This document shows positions 1,028 to 15,246 of a stretch of DNA of 32,000 nucleotides, piece by piece. This DNA comes from Fluviibacter phosphoraccumulans. Its GTDB lineage: Bacteria > Pseudomonadota > Gammaproteobacteria > Burkholderiales > Rhodocyclaceae. The translations under genes were made by a program, and so were the position numbers. The DNA is taken from NCBI RefSeq assembly GCF_016110345.1, contig NZ_AP019011.1, forward strand, positions 52,061 to 84,060, given 5' to 3'. How positions within the stretch are numbered: the stretch's first letter is position 1; every line of letters starts with the position of its first letter. The notes below the pieces were generated by a model. That model ran no database searches. It had not been told where the DNA came from and worked only from the letters and a program-made list of their open reading frames with translations.

Positions 1028-2740
1028 TTAGTTATTGAATTTTTTTGTTTCGTGCCAGACAGTTGGATCAGCATGCTGCCAGGCAATACCGAGCCCCGGA
1101 ACATACTGATCGAGTTTTGCGGCAGCCTCTTCGCCAAGCAAATCACCCTTGCGCAGATTAAGGAGCGCATGCGCCAGATTTTCCGGGCGCCCAGAGATGC
1201 CGCGGACCAGAATTCGGCTGGGTGTTACCTGGCGGGTGTGCGTTAGACCCGTTGCGCCAAGGAGTTCACAAACACCCATGATGGTATTGCGGTGAAAGTT
1301 AGCAACGCGCACCCCTTTGTCGGCCGGATCCAGCGCTTGCTGTCGACTTGGATCCTGTGTGGCAACGCCAGTAGGGCAGCGATTGGTGTCGCACGTCCTT
1401 GATTGAATACAGCCCAGAGCGAACATGAAGCCGCGGGCGGAATTGGCCCAATCTGCGCCAAGAGCACAGACCCGCATGATGTCAAAGGCGGAGATGATTT
1501 TGCCGGAAGCACCGATCCGAATTTCATCACGGAGCCCGGCACCCACCAGACTGGCGTGAACCAGCCGCAAGGCATCCCGCAGCGGCATGCCGATGTGATC
1601 GGCAAACTCCACGGGAGCGGCGCCGGTGCCGCCTTCGCTACCATCGACAACAATAAAGTCTGGTCGGATCCCCGAGGCCAGCATTGCTTTGACCAAGGCA
1701 AACCATTCCGTCATGCGGCCAATGCATAGCTTAAACCCCACCGGCTTACCGTTAGAGAGACGGCGGAGCTTCTGGATAAACTGCAGCAGTTCCAGCGGTG
1801 TCTTGAAGGCACTGTGATCCGCTGGGGAGATGCAGTCCTGATCCATCGGTATGCCGCGCGTCCGGGCAATTTCCGGTGTGATTTTGGCGGCCGGTAGTAC
1901 GCCGCCATGCGCGGGTTTGGCACCTTGTGATAACTTGATTTCAATCATTTTTATCTGCGGCCGCGCCGCCACTTCGGCGAAGCGCTCTGGGTCGAAGCGG
2001 CCCTCTTTGGTGCGACATCCGAAATAGCCAGACCCAATCTCCCAGATCAGATCGCCACCGTGCCGCTCGTGGAATGCCGACACGGAACCCTCCCCGGTGT
2101 CATGGGCAAAACCACCCATGTGTGCGCCCTTGTTCAGTGCCATGATGGCATTGGCGGAAAGCGAGCCGTAGCTCATGGCAGAAATGTTAAAAATAGACAG
2201 GCTGTAGGGTTGCGTGCAGTCAGCCCCGCCGACCATGACGCGCAGCGTGGCCGGGTCCGGGTGTGGAATCGGGGCCAGCGACTGCATCAGCCACTCATAA
2301 CCGGTTTGGTACGGGTCGATAATTGAGCCGAAGGCCTGCGTAGCCGGTAGATTTTTGGCGCGACGGTAAACCAGTACCCGTTGCTGATACGAAAAGGGTA
2401 CTTTGTCGCGATCAGATTCAATCAGGTACTGTCGTATTTCCGGGCGGAATTTCTCAAAAACAAAGCGGATGTGTCCCGAAACTGGGTAATTTCTCAGAAT
2501 GGCATGCCGGGTCTGGCGCACATCATGTAGGCCAAGCAACGCCAGCCCGGAAAAGAGCAGAAGCATGGACCAGTCGAGCGCCCCGGGCATAAAGGACTCA
2601 AACAAGGCTTCTAATGAGTCCACGGACAGTCTGGGCAGCTGCACCACCAGAATGTCTTGCAGAAAAAATAGCGACAGCGCAATGCACAGGAGCCAGGGAA
2701 TATATCGTCCCGGAAACGGTTTTAAATGCATGATGGTCAT
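1028..2740 (-). CDS. FMN-binding glutamate synthase family protein (GltS FMN-domain-like) with an N-terminal membrane anchor
   Basis: 570-aa ORF. The N-terminal segments are hydrophobic (WLLCIALSLFFL, LLLFSGLALLGL). The core carries GltS FMN-domain motifs (KLSQGAKPAHGG, VVDGSEGGTGAAP, CIQSRTCDTNRCPTGVATQD). Confidence 0.85.
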   Translation of the reverse strand: MTIMHLKPFPGRYIPWLLCIALSLFFLQDILVVQLPRLSVDSLEALFESFMPGALDWSMLLLFSGLALLGLHDVRQTRHAILRNYPVSGHIRFVFEKFRPEIRQYLIESDRDKVPFSYQQRVLVYRRAKNLPATQAFGSIIDPYQTGYEWLMQSLAPIPHPDPATLRVMVGGADCTQPYSLSIFNISAMSYGSLSANAIMALNKGAHMGGFAHDTGEGSVSAFHERHGGDLIWEIGSGYFGCRTKEGRFDPERFAEVAARPQIKMIEIKLSQGAKPAHGGVLPAAKITPEIARTRGIPMDQDCISPADHSAFKTPLELLQFIQKLRRLSNGKPVGFKLCIGRMTEWFALVKAMLASGIRPDFIVVDGSEGGTGAAPVEFADHIGMPLRDALRLVHASLVGAGLRDEIRIGASGKIISAFDIMRVCALGADWANSARGFMFALGCIQSRTCDTNRCPTGVATQDPSRQQALDPADKGVRVANFHRNTIMGVCELLGATGLTHTRQVTPSRILVRGISGRPENLAHALLNLRKGDLLGEEAAAKLDQYVPGLGIAWQHADPTVWHETKKFNN

Positions 2741-2815
2741 GTTTATCCGGATAATGATGTTTGTTCGCGATTGAGCTTAATAGCGACATATTACAATTGA
2801 CGCGGTATATCTAAA

Positions 2816-3070
2816 GTGATGAATGAATTTGCACACCGGTTGTATCTGACCAATATTCCCCCAGAGGTTACAGAAGCGGAAATCCGCGCCCTGGTCTTCA
2901 AATACACCCGCCAGGAGCCGGTGGACTTCAAGCGTGTTGACGAAGTCAGCGAGCATCCCGTCTATGTGCTCAGCTTCAATGGCTTGCTGGATGGCGAGCT
3001 CCAGGAGATTGTTTCACGTCTCCATGATCTGTACTGGCACGAACACCATATCGTCGCCCACGTTATTTAA
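2816..3070 (+). CDS. Small RRM-like (RNP2-type) protein, function unknown
   Basis: 84-aa ORF (GTG 2816 or ATG 2819). [20 protein letters not shown] resembles the RNP2 strand and first helix of an RRM fold. No clear RNP1 motif is present. Confidence 0.5.
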
Positions 3071-3126
3071 GTGCGGATGGATTAAAATACGTTCGATATC
3101 TAACATTCGGCAACACAAGGAATTTC

Positions 3127-4829: not shown

Positions 4830-5783
4830 ATGCGTGCCTCTCTGACGTCTCAACCGAGAATCGGGCGTTTTGCGCCATCGCCGACCGGGCCGCTGCATTT
4901 CGGGTCACTAGTGGCGGCAGTCGCCAGCTACTTAGAGGCCAGAGATGGGCAGTGGTTGTTACGTATTGAAGACGTCGATCGGCCGCGCGCTGTGGCCGGT
5001 ATGGCAGCCCTGCAACAAGAGATGCTGCAGGCTTATGGCTTTGAGTGGGAAGGGGCAGTCATTCAGCAGTCCGACCGGGCGGCACTCTACGACGCAGCAT
5101 TAACAAAGCTTATTGCGGCTAATCTGGCTTACCCCTGCACCTGCAGTCGCAGTGCTTTGGCGGCTTATCCAGATTCTCGAATCGGTGTGGATGGCGCGCG
5201 GGTTTATCCCGGCATCTGTCAGCATTGGCAGCATGGAGACCCGATACCAGAGGGGGCTGCGTGGCGGTTCCGCGTCGGTGGCGTCAATGCGCCCGATTGG
5301 GTTTTCGTCGACCAGGTTCAGGGCACCTTTAGCCAGCAGTTGGCGCGCGACGTGGGCGACTTTGTGTTGCGTCGCGCAGATGGCTGTACCACCTACCAAT
5401 TGGCGGTAGTCGTTGATGATCTGGCACAAGGCGTGACGCAGGTGGTGCGTGGCGCCGATTTGCTGGATTCAACGCTGCGACAGATGGCCCTGATCACCGC
5501 GTTGGGCGGGCAAGTGCCAGACTACGCGCATGTTCCCGTGGCGGTTAATGCAGCGGGAGAGAAGCTATCCAAGCAGACTTTGGCGCCGACGCTATCGGTC
5601 GCTTCAGAGGCTGAACGCGTTGGTGCGTTGTGGTCCGTGCTCAGTTTTCTGGGGCAGGCTCCGCCCGATGCATTGTTGCGGGCGAGCCAGGCTGAGTTGT
5701 GGGCCTGGGCCAAAACGCACTGGTTATTGGATCGAGTGCCCAAACAGCGCAGCATGATGGTGCCGACTTTGCGCGCGCTCTAG
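4830..5783 (+). CDS. gluQ: tRNA glutamyl-Q(34) synthetase (GluQRS)
   Basis: GRFAPSPTGPLHFGSLVAAVASYL...LLRIEDVD is a class I HIGH-type motif, and the cysteine cluster YPCTCSR...YPGICQ is typical of GluQRS. The length is right for the truncated GluRS paralogue. The ORF track starts at TTG 4815; ATG 4830 is more likely. Confidence 0.9.
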   Translation: MRASLTSQPRIGRFAPSPTGPLHFGSLVAAVASYLEARDGQWLLRIEDVDRPRAVAGMAALQQEMLQAYGFEWEGAVIQQSDRAALYDAALTKLIAANLAYPCTCSRSALAAYPDSRIGVDGARVYPGICQHWQHGDPIPEGAAWRFRVGGVNAPDWVFVDQVQGTFSQQLARDVGDFVLRRADGCTTYQLAVVVDDLAQGVTQVVRGADLLDSTLRQMALITALGGQVPDYAHVPVAVNAAGEKLSKQTLAPTLSVASEAERVGALWSVLSFLGQAPPDALLRASQAELWAWAKTHWLLDRVPKQRSMMVPTLRAL

Positions 5784-5827
5784 GCTTGTTTACATGCGCT
5801 TAACTTGATTTCCATGGGTGTCTACCG

Positions 5828-5859
5828 CTTTTGCATGGATATTTCGGTACTTTTGCATG
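5828..5859 (+). promoter_or_regulatory. Two perfect 10-bp direct repeats (cttttgcatg) 22 bp apart, upstream of porin 1
   Basis: cttttgcatg occurs at 5828-5837 and 5850-5859, about two helical turns apart and about 110-140 bp upstream of the porin start region. This is a candidate regulator binding pair. Confidence 0.3.
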
Positions 5860-5965
5860 AGATTTACCCGCTGCGGGGTGGTCAATCCACCTCAGAGGCC
5901 CTTGAGAAGGACGAGTAGACTGATATCTAATTGATATTAAGATAATTTTTCGGCTTGGCCGAAAC

Positions 5966-7297
5966 ATGTAAAAGAAACTAATCGCTCTGGCAGTTGCTGG
6001 TCTGTCGACCGCTGCCTTCGCACAAACCAACGTCACCATCTACGGTGTTGCTGACGTTTCGGCTCAAGGCACCAACATGGGTAAGGGCTCGGCACTGGGC
6101 GCAAATCCAGCTGACGGCGGAGCTTTCAATCTGAAGTCGAACAGCTCGCTGATCGGTTTCAAGGGTACCGAAGATCTGGGCAACGGCCTCAAGGCTCTGT
6201 TCCAGATCGAAACTAACGTAAACGTAACAGGCGGCGGTACTGGCCCAGTTGCCAATACTGGTAACAGCGCTTTTGGTTCGCTGCGTGACACGTATGTTGG
6301 CGTAAGCAGCAAGTACGGTACAGCCATGGGCGGCTATCTGTCGACCCCGTTCCGATCGACGTTGACCTCGTTTGACGTGATGCCAGGTGCTACCGGTGAC
6401 GGTCGTATCGAAAACCTCATGGGCAACATGCGCATGACGGGCTCGGCTCTGGGCTACGCAGCTAACACGGGTTATCTGCAAGCATCTTCGTCGGTTCGTG
6501 CAACGGCTCTGGCCTATGCTCTGCCGACTCTGTACGGTTTCAATGGTTCGATCGCCTACACGGGCTCGAACAATAACGGTTCGACCAACCAGACTACGGT
6601 TGGTCCTGTGACCGAAAATTCTACAGGCACTTCGATCACCAGCCAAACCGTAGCTGCTCCTCAGTCGGCATTGTCGATGAATCTGGGTTGGACCGGTTAT
6701 GGTGTGAACGTTGCTGGTGCTTTCCAGCAAGCCAAGGTGAATAACTCGTTTACGTACAGCGGTCCTGTGACTGTTAGTGGCACTGATCCTGTGACTGGCG
6801 TCACTGGCAATACAAGTGTTACTGCTAATGGCTCGGGTACGCTGAATGCTCAAACTTACACCAGCTACCTGATCGGTGCTTCGTACACCGGCCTGCCAGG
6901 TCTGAAGGCTTCGGTTGTTTACAACCGTAACACCCTGAGCACCAACAACCCGAACACTAACTCGCTGCTGAACGGCGCAAGCAAGATCTCCAACAATGGT
7001 ATCTATGTTGGTGCTTCGTACCGTTTTGGCAACAACGAGCCGCGTCTGTCGTATGCAAACCTGAGCAACACCACGGGTGCTAACAGTGCATACTACGGTG
7101 GCCAGGATGGTGCTAACCAGTGGACGGCTAACTGGGGCTACTACCTGAGCAAGCGTACGCAGGTTTACGGTCTGGTTTCGTACCTGAAGAACAATGCTAA
7201 CTCGAACTACAGCATGGCGTCTGGTGGTACTTCGATTCAGCCGACTGCTGGTCAGAACCTCACCACCTACGGTGTCGGTATGCGCACCAACTTCTAA
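5966..7297 (+). CDS. General outer-membrane porin (Gram-negative porin family), copy 1; anomalous start (ATG-TAA, then signal peptide)
   Basis: The ORF track gives 6077..7297, but the frame is open back to 5972. That stretch encodes KKLIALAVAGLSTAAFA|QTNVTIYGVADVSAQG, a signal peptide plus the first beta strand. The body has alternating beta-strand patterns and the C-terminus is TYGVGMRTNF. The ATG at 5966 is followed in frame by TAA at 5969. Confidence 0.85.
5999..6079 (+). repeat. 81-bp 5' homology block shared with porin 2 (12794-12874), 1 mismatch
   Basis: Direct comparison of ggtctgtcgaccgctgc[c/t]ttcgcacaaaccaacgtcaccatctacggtgttgctgacgtttcggctcaaggcaccaacatg in both copies. Confidence 0.9.
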
Positions 7298-7360
7298 TCA
7301 GTTAGTTTCCTGATTTAGAGTGAAACGGGAGCCTTCGGGCTCCCGTTTTTATTGGTGCTT
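7281..7360 (+). repeat. Perfect 80-bp direct repeat, left copy (candidate attL): last 6 porin codons, stop and terminator
   Basis: tgcgcaccaacttctaatcagttagtttcctgatttagagtgaaacgggagccttcgggctcccgtttttattggtgctt is identical at 7281-7360 and 13941-14020. Identity stops abruptly on both sides. Confidence 0.9.
7323..7351 (+). terminator. Rho-independent terminator of porin 1
   Basis: aaacgggagcc-ttcg-ggctcccgttt forms an 11-bp GC-rich stem, followed by a T run. Confidence 0.85.
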
Positions 7361-7362
7361 TG

Positions 7363-8688
7363 TCAGCGTAATGGTTCGATCTTGAAGTAATCACCAGTGT
7401 CTCGACCCATGTGCCAGTTCGCCAACAATTCCTCACGATGTATTTCAACCCACGCATTCGCCAGCAGCTGCTTGTTGGTAGGTAGCTGCCCATAAACTGT
7501 CTCGCTGGTTTCAATATTCATCATCAGTTCGTGACCCTGGTATTGCAGCAATAACGTGGGCGTTTCAACGTGCTGCGGGATATTGGTAGAGAAAGCAGCC
7601 ACCAGCCCGTAAAACGCTGAGACAATTTGTTGATCAGTCGCTACACGTCTTTTGATAAGCGGTTTGACGAACAAATGGCTGAGATCGATACCAGCTACAT
7701 CAAAGTGCATCATTGCTTCAAACAGTGGCTGGAGCGGATACTGCTCGTTGCCATACTTTCGACCGGCTGAACTATTGGTATGACCCGTCAGCGCATCATG
7801 AACCGCTTCTTCAATCCCCATCTGCCGGCAACAGTCTTTAAACGTATGGCGGAAGCTATGAAATACTTTTCTGGGGTCAGTGATTTTCAGGGTATTGCGC
7901 AGCCAAAGCGAGAACCAAGTGCTGAAATAGCCCGCCAGCTTGCCGCGTGGATTCGGCTTGAGATGCGGAAACAACAAGCGGTCTGGCTCTCCTTTTGCCA
8001 CATAGTCGATAAAGCCACACGCCAAAAGGACTGGGTGGACAGGTATGCGACGACGCGATGATGGATTTTTCAACTTGGCATGGGCTGCTTCGTCCGTAAT
8101 GTTCAAATAGTGTCCCAGCCCATTCACAAAACGCACATCGCGCACCAACAGCTGCGCCAGCTCTTCAACACGAGCGCCAGTGTAGAGCGCCAGCAATGGC
8201 AGCCAGTATGCCGCCTCATAGCCGCCGCCACGTGGAAGTAATTTCTCGGAATAGACCGGAGAGTTGAAAATCCGATGCAAGTCTTGAGCATCAAACGCCA
8301 CTCGCTGCTTGATAGTGGGTTTGTTCAATGTCTTGATATTTTGAGCGGGATTGTCGTCCATCAACTCATAATCGATCGCCGCTTCAAACAGACGACGGAT
8401 GATGCTGACTTTGTTGATGGTAGTGGTGACGCTATAGCCCTGTTCCAGCAGCGCATCCCGATACATCACGATATCTTTGCGGGTCAATTCAAGCAGCGGT
8501 TTGTAGCGGACAAGCTGGGCAAACTGTTTAAGGTTTTTCCAGTAAGCATCAACGGTCGTCTCGCGGCGCTGCATTGATGACTTCTGCCACAGCGCAAAAA
8601 GCTCTTCGTAAGGCGTCAAACTTAAAATTTTCGTGGATACGACGGACGAAACGATCGGACGAACAGTAACATCAGTCTCACACCACAT
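7363..8688 (-). CDS. Tyrosine site-specific integrase with a C-terminal DUF4160-like extension
   Basis: 441 aa. The N-terminal part is SAM-like/core-binding (YWKNLKQFAQLV...RKDIVMYRDALL). The catalytic residues are R172 (TGARVEE), H277-x-x-R280 (HSFRH), H303 (TGH) and Y312 (RKYG). Residues ~355-441 (IVSAFYG...YQGHELMMNIETSETVYGQLP...AWVEIHREELLANW...FKIEPLR) look like a DUF4160 family protein. Confidence 0.9.
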   Translation of the reverse strand: MWCETDVTVRPIVSSVVSTKILSLTPYEELFALWQKSSMQRRETTVDAYWKNLKQFAQLVRYKPLLELTRKDIVMYRDALLEQGYSVTTTINKVSIIRRLFEAAIDYELMDDNPAQNIKTLNKPTIKQRVAFDAQDLHRIFNSPVYSEKLLPRGGGYEAAYWLPLLALYTGARVEELAQLLVRDVRFVNGLGHYLNITDEAAHAKLKNPSSRRRIPVHPVLLACGFIDYVAKGEPDRLLFPHLKPNPRGKLAGYFSTWFSLWLRNTLKITDPRKVFHSFRHTFKDCCRQMGIEEAVHDALTGHTNSSAGRKYGNEQYPLQPLFEAMMHFDVAGIDLSHLFVKPLIKRRVATDQQIVSAFYGLVAAFSTNIPQHVETPTLLLQYQGHELMMNIETSETVYGQLPTNKQLLANAWVEIHREELLANWHMGRDTGDYFKIEPLR

Positions 8689-8711
8689 CGTTACCTACTC
8701 GACTGTATGAA

Positions 8712-8903
8712 TTAGATGGATTGGGTCGGTTTTGCCAGCCGTTGTGCTTGCTGCTGGAGCTTTTGCTGAACTTTGCGTTGTCGTTCACGCTGCAGAGCCA
8801 CTTTTGCTGAATCGACTTGCTGCTTAAGTGCCCGGATACGAGCTTGGGCTGGATTAAGCGGTTTTTGAGTGGGCTGGGCTTCGATGACCTCTTTAATGTG
8901 CAT
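8712..8903 (-). CDS. Hypothetical small basic, Gln-rich coiled-coil protein (63 aa)
   Basis: The ORF is co-directional with and sits between orf146 and the integrase. Its composition is helical and charged (RIRALKQQVDSAKVALQRERQRKVQQKLQQQAQRL). The SD is weak. An excisionase/accessory role is only a positional guess. Confidence 0.35.
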   Translation of the reverse strand: MHIKEVIEAQPTQKPLNPAQARIRALKQQVDSAKVALQRERQRKVQQKLQQQAQRLAKPTQSI

Positions 8904-8945
8904 ATTGTATTTAGCGCTCGTCTGTCCATGTCTTGTAAACCACCA

Positions 8946-9386
8946 TCACTTACCAAAGCCGGATTTCAAGGTGTTCGCTGCGTTGTCGATTGCATCATCC
9001 AGTTCGCCGTTCTCCGTCGCTTGTTTCACGATTTCCAGGGTGTTCACGAGTTCCGCCGTGTTCGCCACTTCAATCGCATACTTGCCTTTCGCCAGTTCCA
9101 GCACTTTCGCGCCATAACGGACTGACAGTGCCAACTTACCGTTATCCCCTGTAAACCACCACCCCTTGACCCGTTTACTGGTTTCGACCTGTTTACGGAT
9201 ACCCGTCTCCTTGTCGGTCAATGTGCGGACTTTGGTAAACAAATGCGTGGTGCCATTTGCCTGTGCTGTCGCCAGTTCGATCTGTTCCGCGATACGACCA
9301 ATCAGTTTGTTACGACGCTGAACGACCTGCGGTAAGTTTTGGGGTTTACGAGTAGCAGTCAGCTTGAGTGCGGATAGTGCCGTCAT
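8946..9386 (-). CDS. Hypothetical protein (146 aa), island-borne
   Basis: The ORF track starts at TTG 9410. The ATG at 9386 has a good SD (caaAGGAtttgaaATG). The composition is protein-like (MTALSALKLTATRKPQNLPQVVQRRNKLIGRIAEQIELA...WWFTGDNGKLALSVRYGAKVLELAKGK). I cannot name a family with confidence. Confidence 0.7.
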   Translation of the reverse strand: MTALSALKLTATRKPQNLPQVVQRRNKLIGRIAEQIELATAQANGTTHLFTKVRTLTDKETGIRKQVETSKRVKGWWFTGDNGKLALSVRYGAKVLELAKGKYAIEVANTAELVNTLEIVKQATENGELDDAIDNAANTLKSGFGK

Positions 9387-9528
9387 TTCAAATCCTTTGT
9401 TTGGTTGCAATGACTACACATTAGTTTCGGATTTTGGATTGGACGACCGATTTCCGCTGGTTGCCTCTTCATCGATAGTTAAAGGCCAGATTTTTTCGTC
9501 TTTCTTTATCACGCCGCTAAATACTTGC

Positions 9529-9870
9529 ATGAAAAAGAATGCACTAACCCACAAACAGTTTGCCATCCAACACCAAAACAAACGTGACACAGGATTAACC
9601 GATTGGTGGCTGCGCAACAATGGCATCAAAGCTCAAATCATTTCCAACACCCATAGCAAGCTCATTCAGGCACAGCACGAGGCGCACTTACTGCTCTCAA
9701 ACCACATTGACTTACTGACCAGAGACCAAATCAAGGCACTCAAAAACTTCCAGCGCAAAATGAACACAGGCCACATTCGCAAGAAACTCAAACCCGAAGC
9801 AGCGTATCAAGTGCTGAACATCAGCACCAAAGTCGTTCGGTTGATGCACAGGCAGGCTAAGGCAAAATAA
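9529..9870 (+). CDS. Hypothetical basic protein (113 aa), divergent from orf146
   Basis: The first ATG within ORF 9364..9870 gives MKKNALTHKQFAIQHQNKRDTGL... No domain is recognisable. It is divergently arranged, 142 bp from orf146. Confidence 0.45.
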   Translation: MKKNALTHKQFAIQHQNKRDTGLTDWWLRNNGIKAQIISNTHSKLIQAQHEAHLLLSNHIDLLTRDQIKALKNFQRKMNTGHIRKKLKPEAAYQVLNISTKVVRLMHRQAKAK

Positions 9871-10099
9871 CAGGCAACATCACGGTACAACCAACCGTTC
9901 CCAACAGGTAAAAACGCGGGTTGTAATATGACGGCTAATGACCCCGCACTCGTTGCATGTTCGCTATGGAGAACAGCAACACATGAGTGGATGCCGCAAG
10001 ATTTCTGTTTTTGACAGTTGGAAGTTCTAATACGACCGTCTTCCGTCAAATCTTTCCATAGTCGTGTGCACGGGCGATGTCATACCAATGTACGCGATG

Positions 10100-10140
10100 C
10101 GACGACTATGATGCTTTGTGAGATAAGCACATAGCCGTCG
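10100..10140 (+). other. Extended imperfect hairpin inside the 680-bp non-coding region
   Basis: cgacgactatg (10100-10110) pairs with catagccgtcg (10130-10140) with one mismatch. Nested inside is tgctt/aagca (10112-10116 / 10125-10129). The left arm can alternatively pair with catagtcgt at 10057-10065. Confidence 0.45.
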
Positions 10141-10420
10141 TATGACCTCAAGCTCCATCACCCAATGCACTACAAAAACAAAAGAAGAAAAAAAATGCGA
10201 TGAGCGATAGCGACAGCGCGAGCAAACGCAGTTTGCTCTTCAACAGCTGCTCAAAAATCACCAAGACAAAAGCATAAGTACTTCATCGCTGAAAAATGCA
10301 GCCCTAATCATGCGTCAGCAACAGCCCTATTTGCTTCTACAAACAACGCAAACGTGGGCACACGCACTCTGACTGCTGGCAAACCGCTTTGCAGCGTATA
10401 CGGCGTTATACGTCATTCGC

Positions 10421-10448
10421 CGATAACAAAATACTTAAATTGTTATCG
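10421..10448 (+). promoter_or_regulatory. Palindrome cgataacaa-N10-ttgttatcg upstream of the small recombinase gene (candidate operator)
   Basis: Perfect 9-bp inverted arms at 10421-10429 and 10440-10448, about 100 bp upstream of ATG 10551. A TTGACG-N16-CATAAC promoter-like element follows, then GGAG 8 nt before the ATG. Confidence 0.4.
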
Positions 10449-10550
10449 ATTGGCTTAAGCCGCTGAAATCGAACAGGAAATATTTCGGTAGGAATTTGAC
10501 GCATAAGAAAACATACTCATAACAACAAATCATTATCTGGAGACCACAAC

Positions 10551-11120
10551 ATGGCACAAGCAAAAACACTGACGCAAGCGGAAATCGATCAAGTACTGCG
10601 CTACATTGCACAAAAGCAACGCTACAGCGCACGCAACCGAGCGATGCTGCTCATGAGCTATTACAGCGGCATGCGAGTTGGCGAGATCGCTGCTGTGCGT
10701 ATCGGTGATGTGCGCAATGAAGATGACACGATCAAACAAGAAATCCGTTTGTCCGCCGAACAAACAAAAGGCGACACGGGACGAACAGTATTTTTTAACG
10801 AGAAGCTTCGTGCTGAAATTGCCAGTTACCTCCGCACACATAAACACAGACATCCGACGGAGCCATTGTTCTTCACGGAAAAACAGATCGGCTTCAGTGC
10901 CAACTCGCTGGCACAGTGGTTTTTCTGGGTCTATAAGAAAGCGGGTGTGAGTGGTGCCAGTTCACATAGTGGCAGACGGACTTTCATCACGTCGCTGGCT
11001 AACAAAGGGATTGGCGTCCGTGTGCTGGCAAGTTTGGCCGGACACAAATCCATCCAAGTCACGCAGCACTACATTGATGTCAACGATGGGATGAAACGGG
11101 CGGCGGTTGAGCTGGTTTGA
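10551..11120 (+). CDS. Short catalytic-domain-only tyrosine recombinase (FimB/FimE-like architecture)
   Basis: 189 aa. Catalytic residues are R42 (SGMRVGE), K73, H139-x-x-R142 (SHSGRRT), H165 (AGHKS) and Y174 (QHYI). There is no N-terminal core-binding domain. The layout parallels the ~200-aa Fim-type invertases. Confidence 0.85.
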   Translation: MAQAKTLTQAEIDQVLRYIAQKQRYSARNRAMLLMSYYSGMRVGEIAAVRIGDVRNEDDTIKQEIRLSAEQTKGDTGRTVFFNEKLRAEIASYLRTHKHRHPTEPLFFTEKQIGFSANSLAQWFFWVYKKAGVSGASSHSGRRTFITSLANKGIGVRVLASLAGHKSIQVTQHYIDVNDGMKRAAVELV

Positions 11121-11131
11121 GAACGACGCGG

Positions 11132-11152
11132 TTTATTACTTAAAGTAATAAA
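11132..11152 (+). repeat. Perfect 21-bp palindrome tttattacttaaagtaataaa between the recombinase gene and orf407
   Basis: All 10 arm positions pair around centre 11142. The 9-nt core acttaaagt recurs at 12527-12535. Confidence 0.6.
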
Positions 11153-11199
11153 TTTGAGATTGGGCTAACATGGTCGGTATCCCACGAATGGAGTAACCC

Positions 11200-12423
11200 A
11201 TGTCTGCCGACATCCCCAGTGACGAGGAATTGCTCAAGGAAATCCAAGCCAAAATCATGGTGTTGTCGACGCCGCATAATGTCGCAAAGTACGGCAAGCC
11301 GGATATCCAAACGCTGATCGCCGAAAGAAGGCAATGGTATGCAGATAAGCCCAAACGTGCAGCCGCCGCTGCCAAATATGAAGCGGAACGCAAGAAAGAG
11401 GCTGAAAAGGCCGAGCGGCAGTACCGTCGAGAGCTGAAAAAACAAGGCAAGCCCATCATTAAACAAGATGAGCTGATTGTGCAGTATCCCACCGTTGCTT
11501 TTCTTAAAGAGCGCAAGTTAACCCAGCCGGAGTTGCAGCGGTATGCGGAAATGCTGTCCGCATTGGGCGCGGCAAGCGAGCTTTACAAAGAAGGCCAAGC
11601 GATTGAGCAGCAGTACCTCGTTCCAGGCCGTAAAAAAATGGCGGAGCTGGTCGCCAAAGCGTATGGCCTCTATCGCCGCGTTGAAGCCAGTACGCTCAAG
11701 GAGGAAATCTATGATGAAATGGCCAATATTCTAAAAAGTCATTTCGGTATTGGGGTGCACGTGGACACGCCAAATGCCACTTTGCTGCTCAAAATGGTTT
11801 TTCCAAGCATGAAGTCCAAGGCAGCGCATCAATATGGACGAGCATTGGACTTTGCACTGAGTTACGAAGTCACAGCCGATGATTATGTGGCATTTATCAA
11901 AGAGCATGGCGGCTATGAAAAGATTCGACGGGCCTATGCCAAGGTGCTGGCTGCTGATGCTGGCAAACTCTTGCCATTGCAAAAACAAGCGGCGGAAGTT
12001 GCGACTTTGGAATTCATGAGCGGACTCGAACCAGTCGTCAAAGTGCAGCTAACGGCGCCAGAAGGCCGTCAACTTCGAAAATACCAAAGTGCTCAAGGCT
12101 ACCACTACTTGATTGCTGACATTGACATGCACAACAACATGGAGATTTTGTGTGCAATCCCGCCGGGCAATGGCTGGGAAGACAATTTGATGAAACACAT
12201 CGAGCAAGCGGCACAATCCCATCCTGATTGGCAAGAGGCTTATGAGCGACTTTATGGCCTGTTGGTTAAACGATCCATTAGCAAGACCGTGGAAAAAGTG
12301 GCAAAAGCGGAAGAGAAAGCTAAGTACCGTGCCAAACGTGCTGAAGGTCAAAAAAAGCGGGACGCAGCTTTCAAGCGTGAGGTGGAACGGGAACGAAAGA
12401 AGGCTGGCGCCAAAAAAACGTAA
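11200..12423 (+). CDS. Hypothetical protein (407 aa) with Lys/Glu/Ala-rich N- and C-terminal tails
   Basis: Strong SD (GGAG, then 6 nt, then ATG). The ORF is long and clean. The charged low-complexity segments are KRAAAAAKYEAERKKEAEKAERQYRRELKKQGK and KVAKAEEKAKYRAKRAEGQKKRDAAFKREVERERKKAGAKKT. I cannot assign the central ~250 aa to any family. Confidence 0.75.
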   Translation: MSADIPSDEELLKEIQAKIMVLSTPHNVAKYGKPDIQTLIAERRQWYADKPKRAAAAAKYEAERKKEAEKAERQYRRELKKQGKPIIKQDELIVQYPTVAFLKERKLTQPELQRYAEMLSALGAASELYKEGQAIEQQYLVPGRKKMAELVAKAYGLYRRVEASTLKEEIYDEMANILKSHFGIGVHVDTPNATLLLKMVFPSMKSKAAHQYGRALDFALSYEVTADDYVAFIKEHGGYEKIRRAYAKVLAADAGKLLPLQKQAAEVATLEFMSGLEPVVKVQLTAPEGRQLRKYQSAQGYHYLIADIDMHNNMEILCAIPPGNGWEDNLMKHIEQAAQSHPDWQEAYERLYGLLVKRSISKTVEKVAKAEEKAKYRAKRAEGQKKRDAAFKREVERERKKAGAKKT

Positions 12424-12508
12424 AGCATTGACGTTCGAAAAGGTTTAGGTAGCTTTTGCTACGCTGGCAGTATTTAAACTATGCCTGTCATCGAATTGAT
12501 TTGTGATT

Positions 12509-12545
12509 AAAAAAGCTGCTTTTTACACTTAAAGTGTGCTTTTTT
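12509..12545 (+). terminator. Composite A/T-clamped hairpin downstream of orf407 (possible terminator / protein site)
   Basis: aaaaaagc (12509-12516) pairs with gctttttt (12538-12545). These enclose the 13-nt palindrome acacttaaagtgt (12525-12537), and a T run follows. Confidence 0.35.
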
Positions 12546-12757
12546 GGATCAAAAAATCGTGTTTTTAGCGATGGCTTTTAAAAAATTACCGTTTTTTAGC
12601 CGTCTACATGTCAATTGGCCCTCATCTACACAAAAAATGCTGCTCTTCTGTTAAAAAATACGCTGGCAACATAGAAATAGTGCTGGTAAGTGCTGCTAAA
12701 AGTTTTGCTATAAAGTTTTAACCCGTTGAAATCTAATCTAAAAAGCGGATTTTTTTA

Positions 12758-13957
12758 ATGTAAGCGACGAAACTAATCGCACTAGCAGTTGCCGGTCTGT
12801 CGACCGCTGCTTTCGCACAAACCAACGTCACCATCTACGGTGTTGCTGACGTTTCGGCTCAAGGCACCAACATGTCGAAGGGTGTTAACCCAGGCACGAC
12901 TAAGAACGAAGGCGGTTCGTTCAACATGAAGTCGAACAGCTCGCTGCTGGGCTTCAAGGGTACGGAAGATCTGGGCAACGGCCTCAAGGGTCTGTTCCAA
13001 ATCGAAACCAACGTTGGTCTAACTGGTCAATCTGCAAACCAAGGCGTTGCAGCTGGTTCGACTTCCAATGCTGGTTGGGGTCAACTGCGTGATTCGTATG
13101 TTGGTATGAACAGCAAGTACGGTACGGTTCTGGGCGGCTTCCTGTCGACTCCTTACCGTTCGGCGCTGACCTCGTTCGACGTCATGCCTGGTGCCACTGG
13201 CGATGCACGTATCGAAACCATGATGGGCACGCAGCGTGTTAGCAAGAACGGTCTGGCTTATACTGCACAAAGCTCGGTTCGTGCAACTGCACTTGCCTAC
13301 GCACTGCCAACCATGTACGGTTTCGACGGTTCGATCGCCTACACGGGCTCGAACAACAACGGCAATAATGAAAACGTTAATTCGACTGGCAACAACTTGT
13401 ACAGCGCCCTGTCGACCCAAATCGGCTGGACTGGCTACGGTGTGAATGTCAAGGGTGCTTTCCAGCAAGCTAAGATGATGGGTGCTACGACGGCTGGTGT
13501 TAGTCAAACTCCCGCCAATGCTTACACCAGCTACCTGATCGGTGCTAGCTACACGGGCCTGCCTGGCCTCAAGGCTTCGGTTGTCTACAACCGCAACACC
13601 TTAGGTGGTAACACTGCAACTCTTGCTACTGGTGCTACTTCTGATGCCAACAAGGGTTCGAACAACCAGATCTACGCTGGTGTTAGCTACCGCTTCGGTA
13701 ACAACGAACCACGCCTGACCTACCAAAACAGCAGCAACACTTCGTTCAACGGCGCTAGCGCCAATGACGGTGCAACGCTGTGGGGTGCTAACTGGGGTTA
13801 CTACCTGAGCAAGCGTACGCAAGTTTACGGTATCGTTTCGACCATCAAGAACAACCAAAACGGTACGGTTAACATGGCTTCGGGCGGCACCTCGCTGGTA
13901 CCAACTGGTGGTCAAGTTGTCACCACCTACGGTGCTGGTCTGCGCACCAACTTCTAA
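12758..13957 (+). CDS. General outer-membrane porin, copy 2 (island-proximal); same ATG-TAA anomaly
   Basis: The ORF track gives 12872..13957, but the frame is open back to 12764. That stretch encodes ATKLIALAVAGLSTAAFA|QTNVTIYGVADVSAQG. The ATG at 12758 is followed by TAA at 12761. The C-terminus is TYGAGLRTNF. Confidence 0.85.
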
Positions 13958-14020
13958 TCAGTTAGTTTCCTGATTTAGAGTGAAACGGGAGCCTTCGGGC
14001 TCCCGTTTTTATTGGTGCTT
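13941..14020 (+). repeat. Perfect 80-bp direct repeat, right copy (candidate attR)
   Basis: Identical to 7281-7360. It includes the porin 2 terminator (13983-14011). Confidence 0.9.
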
Positions 14021-14040
14021 CTAAAAGAGTATTGGTTTTT

Positions 14041-15246
14041 TTAGTAATTGTCGGCGTAGCGCGTTAGGCTGAGTAGCCGAAACAGTACGCGTGCGCTCAT
14101 CACGCGCAGTGCGCGATGCAGGCTGGATTTTTTGCCCCAGGCTGCTGCGGTAATTTCTTGGCTGTGGGTCTCAATCTCTTGCTGTAGCTTTGCTTCCAGC
14201 TGCGCACAGAATGCGTCGTCCTCAATAACGATATTGGCTTCCTGTGCCACTAACAGAGAGAAGGGGTCCAGATTGGCCGAGCCTAAGGTTGCCCACCGGC
14301 CATCAATGACGCCTACTTTGGCATGCATGAACCCGGGTTGGTATTCATACAGCCTAATGCCCGCATTGAGCAGCGAGCGGTACAAAGACTGCGAGGCGTA
14401 GTGTTGCAGCCGGTATTCGATTTTGCCCTGAAGGAGCAGGCGTACCTTAACGCCACGTTCTGATGCACTGAGCAGCGCGTTGAGAATGTTGCGGCTGGGT
14501 ATAAAGTAGGCCATGGCCAGCGTAATATGGTCGTGGGCGGTTTGAATGGCCTGAACATAGGCGTTTTCGATGCTGCGTCGTTGGCTCAGGTTGTTACGTA
14601 GCAAGAGCCCGGCGCGAATCTGACCGGCAGGCGCTGTCTTGGTTGGGGTAGGCGCGTGCTTAATACTGCGATGAAACAAGGGGCGGCGCGACAGCGTTTG
14701 CCATTGGCGGTCCATGGCCTCTGCAATGGGCTGCACCATCGGGCCGAAGATTTGCACGGCAAAATCAAGTCGAGTGGGGGATGGGTTGTCTGTGGCGTCA
14801 TCCAGAAGGTTGATGCCGCCAATAAAGGCGGTGCCGCCATCAAACAGCGCCATTTTGCGATGCATCCGGCGCAAGCGTGAGCGTTTGCGCGATAGCAGGT
14901 GGCGCCATAGGTGGTGTTCTGGTCGGTAGATGCGTACTTGTACGCCGGACTGTAGAAGCAATGGCAGATGGTGCTGGTCAATGTTGCGGGCACCGAAGCC
15001 ATCGACCACCAGCCGAACGTCAACACCACGCGCTGCCGCAGCGCAGAGCGCCGTCGTAACGGCCTGGCCGATGGCATCATCGGCATACAGATAAGTTTCC
15101 AGGCGAACGGTGTGGGTGGCCTGGTTAATTGCTTGTAGGAGCGCCGGAAAATACGCTTCGCCGTTGCACAGCAGGCTAATGGTGTTACCCCCCAGGACCG
15201 GATGCGCCGGGTGTAGTGCCTTCAGCAATTGGCGGCGCAGGCTCAT
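14041..15246 (-). CDS. clsB: Cardiolipin synthase ClsB-type (phospholipase D family, two HKD motifs)
   Basis: HRKMALFDGGTAFIGGINL and HAKVGVIDGRWATLGSANLD are two HxK(x)4D motifs. The likely start is ATG 15246 (MSLRRQLL...), 1 nt after the upstream stop codon. The longer track ORF (to 15426) overlaps the upstream gene. Confidence 0.9.
   Translation of the reverse strand: MSLRRQLLKALHPAHPVLGGNTISLLCNGEAYFPALLQAINQATHTVRLETYLYADDAIGQAVTTALCAAAARGVDVRLVVDGFGARNIDQHHLPLLLQSGVQVRIYRPEHHLWRHLLSRKRSRLRRMHRKMALFDGGTAFIGGINLLDDATDNPSPTRLDFAVQIFGPMVQPIAEAMDRQWQTLSRRPLFHRSIKHAPTPTKTAPAGQIRAGLLLRNNLSQRRSIENAYVQAIQTAHDHITLAMAYFIPSRNILNALLSASERGVKVRLLLQGKIEYRLQHYASQSLYRSLLNAGIRLYEYQPGFMHAKVGVIDGRWATLGSANLDPFSLLVAQEANIVIEDDAFCAQLEAKLQQEIETHSQEITAAAWGKKSSLHRALRVMSARVLFRLLSLTRYADNY

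Follow-up and report, generated by a model that had tools for sequence, protein, structure and literature searches.

A putative porin-terminator-specific mobile island carrying a start-crippled porin in Fluviibacter phosphoraccumulans

Gene content of the porin locus

The window, the 32,000-nucleotide stretch of Fluviibacter phosphoraccumulans DNA analyzed here and identified with record AP022347.1, contains two porin genes between gluQ and a cardiolipin synthase gene (Table 1). An 80-bp direct repeat (100% identity between copies) brackets 6,660 bp, the 6.7-kb island. Each copy spans the last six codons of a porin gene, the TAA stop, a small hairpin, and the terminator hairpin, which folds at -27.9 kcal/mol (z = -4.9). 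Upstream of the repeat the two porins are ~75% to 86% identical, downstream of it the sequences are unrelated, and the left copy lies 2 nt from the end of the integrase ORF; alignment confirmed this layout, which a preliminary description of the locus had reported without the identity values for the porins. Even with up to three mismatches allowed, the window has exactly two occurrences of the 29-nt hairpin core (shuffled sequences: 0 expected). The G+C content is 0.43 to 0.51 within the island versus 0.53 to 0.61 in the flanks, and no invertible segment was found in the window. An assembly 99.99% identical to the window departs from it just past the attR hairpin. Assemblies break at the 80-bp repeat and therefore showed neither an excised circle nor an attP junction.

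Table 1 Features of the island and its chromosomal flanks (window positions)
Feature	Position	Strand	Remarks
gluQ (glutamyl-Q tRNA(Asp) synthetase-like)	4830..5783	+	left chromosomal flank; Pfam tRNA-synt_1c; annotated gene coordinates
Porin 1, integrase-proximal ("resident")	5966..7297	+	porin HMM; NCBIfam PorB-like
Porin 1 5' conserved block	5974..6087	+	signal peptide codon 4 to first beta strand
attL, left 80-bp repeat copy	7281..7360	+	hairpin core 7323-7351
Tyrosine integrase with C-terminal DUF4160 (DhiT-like), 441 aa	7363..8688	-	reads toward attL
63-aa basic, Gln-rich ORF	8712..8903	-	annotated gene; homologues in L108, L113
DUF6641 protein, 146 aa	8946..9386	-	island backbone gene; Pfam PF20346
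113-aa ORF	9529..9870	+	annotated gene
Structured conserved noncoding element	9904..10084	+	candidate ncRNA or leader
Small tyrosine recombinase, 189 aa	10551..11120	+	catalytic domain only; island backbone gene; Pfam Phage_integrase, 93.8 bits
407-aa all-helical protein	11200..12423	+	AlphaFold model pLDDT 77
A/T-rich region upstream of porin 2	12424..12757	+	G+C 0.43; four A5-N6-T5 motifs
Porin 2, island-borne	12758..13957	+	porin HMM
attR, right 80-bp repeat copy	13941..14020	+	hairpin core 13983-14011
ClsB, cardiolipin synthase	14041..15246	-	right chromosomal flank; Pfam PLDc_2; homologue named ClsB in a source

Between the repeats, the genes run from the Int-DUF4160 fusion through the 63-aa ORF, the DUF6641 gene, the 113-aa ORF, the 189-aa recombinase, and the 407-aa protein to porin 2. 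The integrase matches Phage_integrase, SAM-like N-terminal domains, and DUF4160 in Pfam and the XerD-like N-terminus and DhiT models of NCBIfam, and its residues R173, K207, H277, R280, H303, and Y312 are invariant across 16 homologues. The 63-aa ORF, which is without a match to any family searched, may be a candidate recombination directionality or regulatory factor. The DUF6641 gene is kept in the islands of several related loci (L019, L020, L022, L024, L108, L110, and L113) and of a Limnohabitans locus (L147). The small recombinase is kept in related islands and in Limnohabitans as well; it scored below the cut-off against Xer, FimB/E-type invertase, and integron models. Homologues of the 113-aa ORF were found in L019 and L113 only. 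The noncoding element matched none of the Rfam families; over 43 nt it shares 98% identity with its counterpart in an island whose integrase is only 61% identical, and its consensus fold has 42 pairs, with compensatory changes in six. Only nine homologues were found for the 407-aa protein, which had no match in Pfam, NCBIfam, PHROG, PADLOC, or the PDB and whose AlphaFold model gave no match in Foldseek. Apart from the integrases, the island contains no phage genes. In Limnohabitans, a member of another bacterial order, the backbone genes recur with a different integrase and a type I restriction-modification system, showing that the backbone is mobile.

An integrase family associated with porin 3' ends

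The integrase is a member of a large Rhodocyclales subfamily in which at least 120 clusters have the Int-DUF4160 architecture and which is absent from IMG/VR. In 19 of 21 species-representative loci, Int-DUF4160 is located near a porin gene, usually convergent on its stop codon (60 to 400 bp past the Int stop in 12 porin-bearing loci), whereas none of 59 loci for related integrases without DUF4160 (33% to 46% identical) has a porin nearby. In Dechloromonas sp. ZS-1, two islands lie in tandem beside trpC, with Int convergent on a porin in each, and a Rhodocyclales metagenome-assembled genome has one such island adjoining obg/proB. The islands of L019, L020, and L036 are flanked by direct repeats that extend from the last porin codons to at most 12 nt past the T-run. 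The preliminary description had proposed an island that uses a porin 3' end and terminator as its att while carrying a full porin, and had recommended a search for integrase homologues beside porin 3' ends; the results bear this out for a family associated with porin 3' ends at numerous chromosomal positions.

The 80-bp identity could alternatively stem from gene conversion between tandem porin paralogues, with the island lying between them by chance and using another att. The 5' ends of the two porins have also been homogenized (the near-identical block noticed earlier is real, with 94% identity over 114 nt between 5974-6087 and 12769-12882), porins of this group are mosaics with variable breakpoints, and the crossover mapping described below does not demand identity left of the hairpin or in the 9 nt right of it. 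However, the identity ends exactly at the island edges, just before the Int stop and 20 nt before the clsB stop, and the position of the edge relative to the terminator is repeated in four other genera. The family-wide link between Int and porins likewise argues against conversion. The window has no tRNA gene and no other flanking repeat that bounds the island, and neither an alternative att pair nor related genomes with tandem porins lacking the insert were found. We therefore regard conversion as a very improbable origin of the arrangement. Raised as a caveat in the preliminary description, it may well explain the identity outside a core of ~29 bp, but it does not explain the element.

Occupied and empty sites and the crossover point

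Related metagenome contigs provided two pairs of occupied and empty sites: L005 and L114 at gluQ-porin-att-TPR, and L110 and L116 at porin-att-clsB. The empty single-porin sites, for which a search among relatives had been suggested, are thus present on L114 and L116. These contigs are from populations with only 88% to 97% identity and carry different porin alleles, so that homologous deletion and site-specific excision are indistinguishable as the cause of loss.

The crossover was mapped by comparing L108, L110, L114, and L116. The same island (91% nucleotide identity) is located behind different porins in L108 and L110; their similarity begins at the hairpin and does not extend into the 25-nt spacer upstream, which is unrelated. 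Within L108, the differences between attL and attR, at stem position 8 and right past the T-run, leave ~21 bp for the exchange. The crossover therefore lies in ~21 bp within the porin terminator hairpin and not in coding sequence. A replacement 3' end like those of e14 and phage 21, as envisaged earlier, is unneeded when the exchange takes place downstream of the stop codon, and a full porin is not required to keep the target intact. The core, AAACGGGAGCC-TTCG-GGCTCCCGTTTTTA, has the geometry of tyrosine-recombinase core sites, with inverted arms on either side of a TTCG loop. Since UUCG-loop terminators are common, the hairpin alone is insufficient for specificity.

Four Thauera species share the integrase, a divergent porin pair, and 20 kb of flanks in synteny, so the integrase looks resident rather than mobile there; the 5' ends of this pair are 98% to 100% identical and the 3' repeats are inverted. 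Int is flanked by convergent porin pairs with inverted 3' repeats in L030, L031, L034, and L037, the same porin body is found behind a 5' end bearing a Shine-Dalgarno (SD) sequence in L029 and behind an SD-less one in L038, and minimal Int-HTH modules (L104 and L105) sit between a porin hairpin and clsB without a second hairpin that could serve as att. All of this would fit a domesticated resident recombinase that varies porins by inversion or by switching live and silent cassettes, the window being one such arrangement. For the window itself we consider this unlikely. Its repeats are direct, so that recombination between them would cause excision, not inversion, and the presence of the island differs between related populations. 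The same island type occurs behind different porins at different loci, tandem islands each have their own Int, the G+C content of the island is below that of the flanks, and the backbone genes accompany a different integrase in another bacterial order. Domestication and a mobile island are not mutually exclusive, since Thauera may have fixed a mobile ancestor.

Crippled starts and shuffled porin alleles

Both porins of the window have a stop as their second codon. In porin 1, the ATG (5966-5968) is directly followed by TAA (5969-5971), after which a 441-codon ORF, signal peptide included, is intact; in porin 2, the ATG (12758-12760) and TAA (12761-12763) precede an intact 397-codon ORF. Neither gene has an SD sequence, whereas in an alignment of start regions live porins have AGGAG followed by ATG CAA. 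With both porins in this state, the display of a new porin in the manner of lysogenic conversion, as first proposed, is doubtful. Start-crippled porins with intact ORFs and dN/dS of 0.25 to 0.42 are also present in L107, L108, L110b, L021, L025, L033, L039, L030, and L023, with live SD and ATG-CAA porins beside them, and otherwise intact genes of this kind occur in at least five lineages. The porin adjoining gluQ is start-crippled even at the empty site L114, and both porins have live starts in L020 and L036; crippling is thus neither universal nor limited to island porins. In a more distant relative, gluQ and clsB are directly convergent with no porin between them, and the integrase-proximal porin, previously taken as the resident one, is therefore not the ancestral state of the site.

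In 11 alleles with dS values of 0.6 to 1.0 over the rest of the sequence, identity in the 5' block is at least 95% for its first ~105 nt (to CAAGG in beta strand 1). The mature part of porin 2 has 88% amino-acid identity with L110a, a live resident porin of a related population. Porin alleles were found at both island-borne and resident positions, behind live and crippled 5' ends, and in Thauera the porin body has been swapped relative to a colinear promoter region. The elements form a previously undescribed Rhodocyclales family that seems to shuffle porin alleles.

The island porin might instead have no adaptive role, being target-flanking DNA picked up by imprecise excision in a former host, kept for its attP and long porin homology, and silenced since a second porin is costly. 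The crossover outside the coding sequence makes the porin unneeded for target repair, and the crippling takes varied forms (TAA, TGA-TAA, lost ATG, and lost SD), as repeated loss of expression predicts. In L019, moreover, the island porin has a frameshift and the resident one has no signal peptide. Nevertheless, ORFs of ~400 codons have stayed intact over the divergence noted above with the same dN/dS as live porins, at least five lineages have the start-stop form in which the ATG is kept, and island alleles are live resident alleles elsewhere, all of which makes a porin without an adaptive role improbable.

A putative porin-terminator-specific island

We consider it probable (roughly 70%) that 7361-14020 is an integrated, porin-terminator-specific mobile island that delivers spare porin cassettes. 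Int-DUF4160 would act on attP of the island and on the intrinsic-terminator hairpin downstream of a porin gene, recombining the two. The island porin and the integrase would be convergent on attP in the circular form, and integration would produce the order resident porin, attL, integrase, backbone (DUF6641, small recombinase, and unknowns), island porin, and attR. As all islands end in a porin with the same terminator, the target would be recreated at each insertion, which would explain tandem arrays and also, where copies are inverted, inversions. As imported, the porin is usually not ready for use, its ribosome-binding site and second codon being destroyed and its 400-codon body intact. As a spare cassette, it could be activated by homologous crossover in the 105-nt 5' block common with a live porin, placing a new body behind a working start. 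Between direct repeats this crossover would delete the old body together with the island, and between inverted copies it would cause a flip.

Phage 21 and e14 integrate into the 3' end of icd and duplicate it. As in those prophages, a tyrosine integrase adjoins att, the insert lies between direct repeats of the target 3' end, and the target remains intact. The island differs in that the exchange is in the terminator hairpin past the stop, so no replacement coding end is needed, and in that it carries a whole paralogue of its target, a porin, rather than a fragment. Like islands and prophages with tRNA or tmRNA genes as targets (P4-type and related), the island has a short crossover segment between inverted stem sequences, an identity block that reaches the transcript 3' end, and a target recreated with each insertion, so that tandem arrays are possible; the target of those elements is a stable RNA gene, whereas here it is an intrinsic mRNA terminator. 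To our knowledge, the toxin-like DUF4160 domain is not known from P4-type and related integrase families.

Lambdoid prophages also carry paralogues of general-diffusion porins, namely Lc of phage PA-2, which is expressed, and NmpC of DLP12. Those elements are phages and are not known to use the porin as att; the island has no phage genes other than integrases, and its porin is start-crippled. The resemblance to integron cassettes (IntI, attC) lies in a tyrosine recombinase acting on a hairpin-forming site at an ORF 3' end, in tandem stacking, and in incoming genes without their own working expression signals. Unlike cassettes, the units here each come with an integrase of their own plus several further genes, an attI or Pc platform is lacking, an ordinary terminator serves as the site, and scores against integron-integrase models are below the cut-off. 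Finally, in pilE/pilS, the R64 shufflon with Rci, and fimS with FimB/FimE, one live expression end is likewise combined with several intact unexpressed bodies, conserved blocks surround variable parts, and a tyrosine recombinase adjoins the locus; the putative porin cassettes differ from these in being full-length genes on a horizontally mobile island.

A porin terminator hairpin as probable attachment site

The segment between the two direct repeats is probably a site-specific integrative island: the integrase gene lies beside the attachment site, the repeats bound the segment, and empty sites exist in relatives. The window matches record AP022347.1 of Fluviibacter phosphoraccumulans. The analysis bore out the preliminary description in that the two 80-bp copies (attL and attR) are 100% identical, the porin sequences upstream of them are just ~75-86% identical, the downstream DNA is unrelated, and the integrase stop codon lies 2 nt from the left copy. 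Each copy takes in the final six codons of a porin with their TAA, followed by a small hairpin and then a strong one, the terminator (-27.9 kcal/mol, z = -4.9). The window contains two and only two occurrences of the 29-nt hairpin core, even with up to three mismatches, against an expectation of zero from shuffled sequences. Flanking repeats of 84-109 bp are also present at three related loci (L019, L020, and L036), and a fourth (L110) has two att copies 8,007 bp apart.

Features of the porin island and its flanks, in window order
Feature	Position	Strand	Remarks
ychF, Ysc84-like gene, gluQ			left flank
Porin 1	5966-7297	+	resident, integrase-proximal
attL	7281-7360		left repeat copy
441-aa tyrosine integrase with C-terminal DUF4160 (DhiT-like)	7363-8688	-	first inside the 6,660-bp interval, reads towards attL
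63-aa ORF			second in island
DUF6641 protein			third in island
113-aa ORF			fourth in island
181-nt conserved non-coding element	9904-10084	+	between 113-aa ORF and small recombinase
189-aa recombinase	10551-11120	+	catalytic domain only
407-aa protein			after small recombinase, function without assignment
A/T-rich spacer			before porin 2
Porin 2	12758-13957	+	island-borne, last gene before attR
attR	13941-14020		right repeat copy
clsB			right flank

The point of exchange is narrowed by loci L108 and L110, in which one island type (91% nucleotide identity) lies behind a different porin in each. The two become similar only from the hairpin onward; the 25-nt spacer that separates it from the stop codon is unrelated. 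Two differences distinguish attL from attR in L108, one at stem position 8 (A vs G) and one immediately past the T-run (C vs T). Crossover is thereby confined to ~21 bp made up of the loop, the right stem, and the T-run. The repeats of L019, L020, L036, and the window all end no more than 12 nt past the T-run. The hairpin core is made up of 9-11-bp inverted arms flanking C-TTCG-G, a layout suggestive of a core site for a tyrosine recombinase. Crossover is mapped to the terminator hairpin, at least 26 nt 3' of the stop codon and not within the coding sequence as in icd-type elements, so no substitute 3' end is required; the replacement 3' end proposed earlier, on the logic of phage 21 and e14 in icd, does not apply here. 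The accompanying caveat that gene conversion might account for the repeat may hold in part: in the window, the sequence identity left of the hairpin may well stem from conversion. As the sole cause of repeat identity, gene conversion fails, being contradicted by the island edges and by the family-wide association of this integrase with porin genes.

An integrase subfamily linked to porin genes

The integrase, here termed Int-DUF4160, is predicted to be a tyrosine recombinase of the phage integrase type from its catalytic set, its fold, and a SAM-like N-terminal core-binding domain. Residues R173, K207, H277, R280, H303, and Y312 are invariant among 16 homologues, the N-terminal half is matched by XerD (1a0p), and the protein matches PF00589 (29.7 bits, cut-off 27.1), PF02899 (29.3 bits, cut-off 22.3), and the PHROG 1 integrase (E = 5.5e-30). 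Its DUF4160 domain scores 36.8 bits in Pfam (cut-off 23) and 41 bits against the NCBIfam DhiT model, below the cut-off of 100. DUF4160 has been described only in toxins or effectors, and the DhiT/DUF4160 type II toxin stands alone, at ~80 aa, with a DUF2442 protein as its antitoxin (PMC8198452, PMC12065111). A toxin of this stand-alone kind was ruled out, since DUF4160 is here part of the integrase and a search for a neighboring DUF2442 antitoxin ORF found none.

The Int-DUF4160 architecture is present in at least 120 protein clusters, mostly from Rhodocyclales. A scan of one genome per species for relatives of the integrase gave 512 candidate stretches, 80 of which were kept: 21 loci with a full-length Int-DUF4160 and 59 with 33-46% identical integrases that lack DUF4160, at least 14 of the latter being from Betaproteobacteria. 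Porins were detected by HMM in 19 of the 21 Int-DUF4160 loci vs none of the 59 others, and in 12 of the 21 a convergent porin stop lies 60-400 bp past the integrase stop, in answer to the earlier question of whether homologues of the integrase also sit next to porin 3' ends. Dechloromonas sp. ZS-1 has two tandem islands adjoining trpC, in each of which the integrase is convergent on the porin, and one island in a Rhodocyclales MAG adjoins obg/proB. The subfamily was not found in IMG/VR, where the only relatives are those without DUF4160, sited at prophage ends. PHROG matches in the window are limited to integrases and two families of unknown function, with none to phage structural, replication, or lysis genes, and on these two grounds a prophage with a lysogenic-conversion porin was rejected.

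At locus L113, the integrase gene is flipped relative to att in comparison with the window and the neighboring gene order is kept; repeated AGCGTTAA/TTAACGCT motifs are present in the 150 bp separating att from the integrase start.

Occupied, empty, and rearranged sites

A scan of metagenomes for the hairpin core recovered 15 contigs from Fluviibacter-like populations. One of these (L114), with the order gluQ-porin-att-TPR gene, is 97% identical to the left flank of the window and matches the right flank of L005 (GCA_024642425.1) at 94% identity. The L005 record and the window agree at 99.99% over 14 kb, and L005 has the island between gluQ-porin and the TPR flank; these flank matches identify L114 as an empty site for L005. 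Another contig, L116, has a live porin (that is, one with an AGGAG Shine-Dalgarno sequence and an ATG CAA start) in the order porin-att-clsB and is the empty counterpart of L110 (porin-att-Int...porin-att-clsB), with an upstream region common to both at ~88% identity; it is the single-porin site followed by clsB that had been sought. Empty target sites are thus present in relatives, with flanks 88-97% identical and differing porin alleles. Porin terminators probably serve as attachment sites for a dedicated integrase, and islands come and go at them. Assemblies break at the repeat, where the contigs found by exact look-ups of the clsB and nadA proteins stop. Two further candidates were discarded, as the 2.3-kb insert after att in L109 is only an extra TPR-glycosyltransferase paralogue and the supposed empty site L107 is in fact the attR end of an L110-like island.

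In the more distant relative L100 (ClsB 70% identical), gluQ and clsB are convergent, with a 4-nt overlap and no porin between them; the whole stretch 5784-14040 was therefore acquired in the lineage of the window. This relative also has a cytochrome b gene and two YceI genes inserted between gluQ and the Ysc84-like gene.

The window and L005 diverge just after attR (~14012-14026), where L005 enters TPR, methyltransferase, and GspH genes and not clsB. The gluQ-porin-att-TPR linkage is confirmed by independent metagenome contigs, and three of the four possible combinations of left and right flanks were observed. This pattern fits att inversions between two porin loci, or else a misassembly in one of the records.

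Minimal modules, in which Int-DUF4160 is accompanied by a small ORF and an HTH_3 regulator, are located between the porin hairpin and the clsB stop at L104/L112 and L105/L117/L118. They have neither a second porin nor a second hairpin, and L111 (clsB 95.6% identical) lacks the module.

Porin genes with crippled starts

The two window genes have the characteristics of Gram-negative general porins (Porin_4/PorB-like) except for a working translation start. The annotation of the same record assigns them to Pfam Porin_1 and Porin_4, they score 71 bits against the PorB model, below its equivalog cut-off of 480, and they have a signal peptide (...AAFA/QTNVT) and the terminal sequence ...RTNF. Both begin with ATG TAA (5966-5971 and 12758-12763), followed in frame by an intact signal peptide and barrel, and the public annotation puts both starts at ATC. 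Live porins of related contigs start with AGGAG, 7 nt, and ATG CAA AAG AAA; the island-type porins have CAGGA or nothing at the Shine-Dalgarno position and TAA replacing CAA. The preliminary description envisaged display of a new porin in the manner of lysogenic conversion, which the lack of working starts in both porins makes doubtful.

Start-stop porins without a Shine-Dalgarno sequence (ATG TAA, GTG TAA, or ATG GCC TGA TAA) are also present at L021, L025, L033, L039, L107, L108, L110, L114, and L115. The defect is ATG TAA in Pseudothauera, ATG GCC TGA TAA in Dechloromonas ARDL1, ATG or GTG followed by TAA in two further lineages, CGG (L030) or ATA (L023) in place of ATG, and a missing Shine-Dalgarno sequence in the second porins of Thauera. 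Such diversity of start defects agrees with the island porin being a hitch-hiker without a role, an explanation that does not fit the open reading frames, since the start-crippled porins retain intact ORFs of ~400 codons under purifying selection (dN/dS 0.25-0.42 at dS 0.6-1.0), the same as live porins. Crippling is not universal (L020 and L036 each have two live porins), nor is it confined to island copies, the gluQ-side porin being of the TAA type even at the empty site L114.

Frameshifting past the ATG-TAA was ruled out because the sequence after the TAA is variable (AAG AAA, GCG ACG, ACG AAA). The start-stop porins may be silent cassettes, tRNA-Gln read-through genes, or a device for start-stop control. 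The ATG-TAA start, which is conserved in five lineages or more, could alternatively represent new translational control, for example Gln read-through restoring MQKK.

In L002/L019 (porins at 11475-12587 and 1851-3122), the signal peptide is missing from the integrase-proximal porin (MQKKLI then SGLVDIGAY), whose Shine-Dalgarno sequence and ATG are normal, and the island-borne porin has a frameshift near codon 75-90. These defects may be real decay or MAG error.

Porin allele exchange

Similar porin bodies recur at different positions. Porin 2, of the TAA type, is 88% identical at the amino acid level to the live resident porin of L110 (L110a), the island-borne porin of L108 (L108b) is 86% identical to the resident porin of L112, and the L114 porin is 82% identical to that of L116 at another locus. 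The gluQ-side porin (window 5972-7294 vs L114, L109, L115, and L008) has dS of ~0.9 and amino acid identity of 65-74% within flanks that are 94-97% identical, and mosaic breakpoints lie at differing positions. Across all alleles, identity is at least 95%, also at synonymous sites, over a 5' block of ~105 nt that starts at codon 4 of the signal peptide and reaches the first strand. The loci show tandem and inverted arrangements, exchange of alleles among positions, and porin bodies that are conserved despite being crippled.

In four Thauera species (L027, L029, L035, and L038), synteny covers the integrase, a divergent porin pair, and 20 kb of flanks, and the divergent porins of a locus have 5' ends that are 98-100% identical. 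The body behind the Shine-Dalgarno-bearing end in L029 is 97% identical to that behind the end lacking this sequence in L038, with a colinear intergenic region, in a body exchange involving two species that are 95% identical. These loci and the minimal modules agree with the integrase being a resident porin-switch recombinase, an explanation that fits Thauera and not the window, where the direct repeats, the presence/absence polymorphism, and the mobile backbone disagree with it. The Thauera intergenic region also contains an apparent small toxin-antitoxin-like ORF pair.

Proposed mechanism and comparison with known systems

In the proposed mechanism, Int-DUF4160 would catalyze both integration and excision, with the hairpin as the site of exchange, and each island would recreate a target through its own porin terminator at its end. 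The imported body would be expressed only after homologous crossover in the 5' block with a live porin, as a deletion if the copies are direct or a flip if they are inverted. A more tentative reading, to which we give a probability of about 0.3, is that the Int-DUF4160 islands constitute a horizontally transferable form of silent-cassette antigenic variation. Islands could dock at the terminator of any porin, leaving a full-length, deliberately untranslatable start-stop body without a Shine-Dalgarno sequence. A swap by recombination in the invariant 5' block would then move this body behind the single live porin start of the cell. Porin alleles would thereby be replaced within and between species, probably driven by phages, with large chromosome inversions between porin loci as an att x att by-product.

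The closest systems are icd-type elements, islands targeting tRNA or tmRNA genes, prophage porins (Lc, NmpC), integron cassettes, and silent-cassette variation; each has some of the features observed here and none has the whole combination. In contrast to integrons, every unit here has its own integrase, and an integron assignment was rejected, as only the small recombinase matches TIGR02249 (43 bits vs a cut-off of 265) and Int-DUF4160 has no match. Full-text searches of PubMed Central and bioRxiv returned no description of a porin-terminator att, Int-DUF4160, islands ferrying silenced porins, or recurrent start-stop porin genes.

Porins are the main nutrient gates and frequent phage receptors, and strains otherwise at least 95% identical have sharply different porin alleles, here with dS of ~0.9 inside 97% identical flanks. 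Elements that seek out porin terminators and carry along intact but silenced bodies would be a concrete vehicle for this turnover. They would also bring an intrinsic terminator into the small set of integrase targets and explain rearrangements between porin loci. The integrase is compact, with a toxin-like domain and a hairpin site of ~29 bp that could be tested directly, and the recurrent start-stop porin genes pose a separate puzzle in translation biology.

Island gene content

The G+C content is 0.43-0.51 within the island and 0.53-0.61 outside, and neither a tRNA gene nor a match to any Rfam family, including for the non-coding element, was found in the window. The 407-aa protein, for which nine homologues were found, has no sequence match in Pfam, NCBIfam, PHROG, PADLOC, or PDB, and its all-helical AlphaFold model (pLDDT 77) has no Foldseek match in PDB. 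PADLOC detected no anti-phage defence genes in the island. The small recombinase fits the FimB/FimE type in size (~200 aa) and scores 46.9 bits against PRK09870, below the cut-off of 221; no convincing inverted repeats that would bound an invertible segment were found within 7300-14100.

Over 43 nt, the non-coding element is 98% identical to its counterpart in an island with an integrase of just 61% identity. It has a consensus fold with six compensatory pairs among 42 and is confined to islands that also have a homologue of the 113-aa ORF. An exact search of IMG/VR gave no match to it, and its RNAduplex pairing with porin 5' regions or att was no better than that of shuffled sequences, in a method ill-suited to such long inputs.

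Four A5-N6-T5 motifs (e.g., AAAAAAGCTGCTTTTT and AAAAAATCGTGTTTTT) are located at 12509-12757, in the A/T-rich DNA upstream of porin 2. The window island lacks the palindrome TGTCNNTTTAAANNGACA (general form TGTC-N2-TTTAAA-N2-GACA), which is repeated in other island variants (L002/L019 with nine copies, L001, L020, L108, and L110). In L002, the stretch from the integrase stop to att contains three copies spaced at 43 bp, and the copies may be arm-type or regulator sites. In Limnohabitans sp. Jir61 (L147), the 189-aa recombinase, a homologue of the 407-aa protein, and DUF6641 are found together with another integrase, of 477 aa, and a type I restriction-modification system in an island without a porin, with a tRNA-Arg gene ~2 kb past its DUF6641 end. 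The island backbone therefore combines with varied integration modules and cargo.
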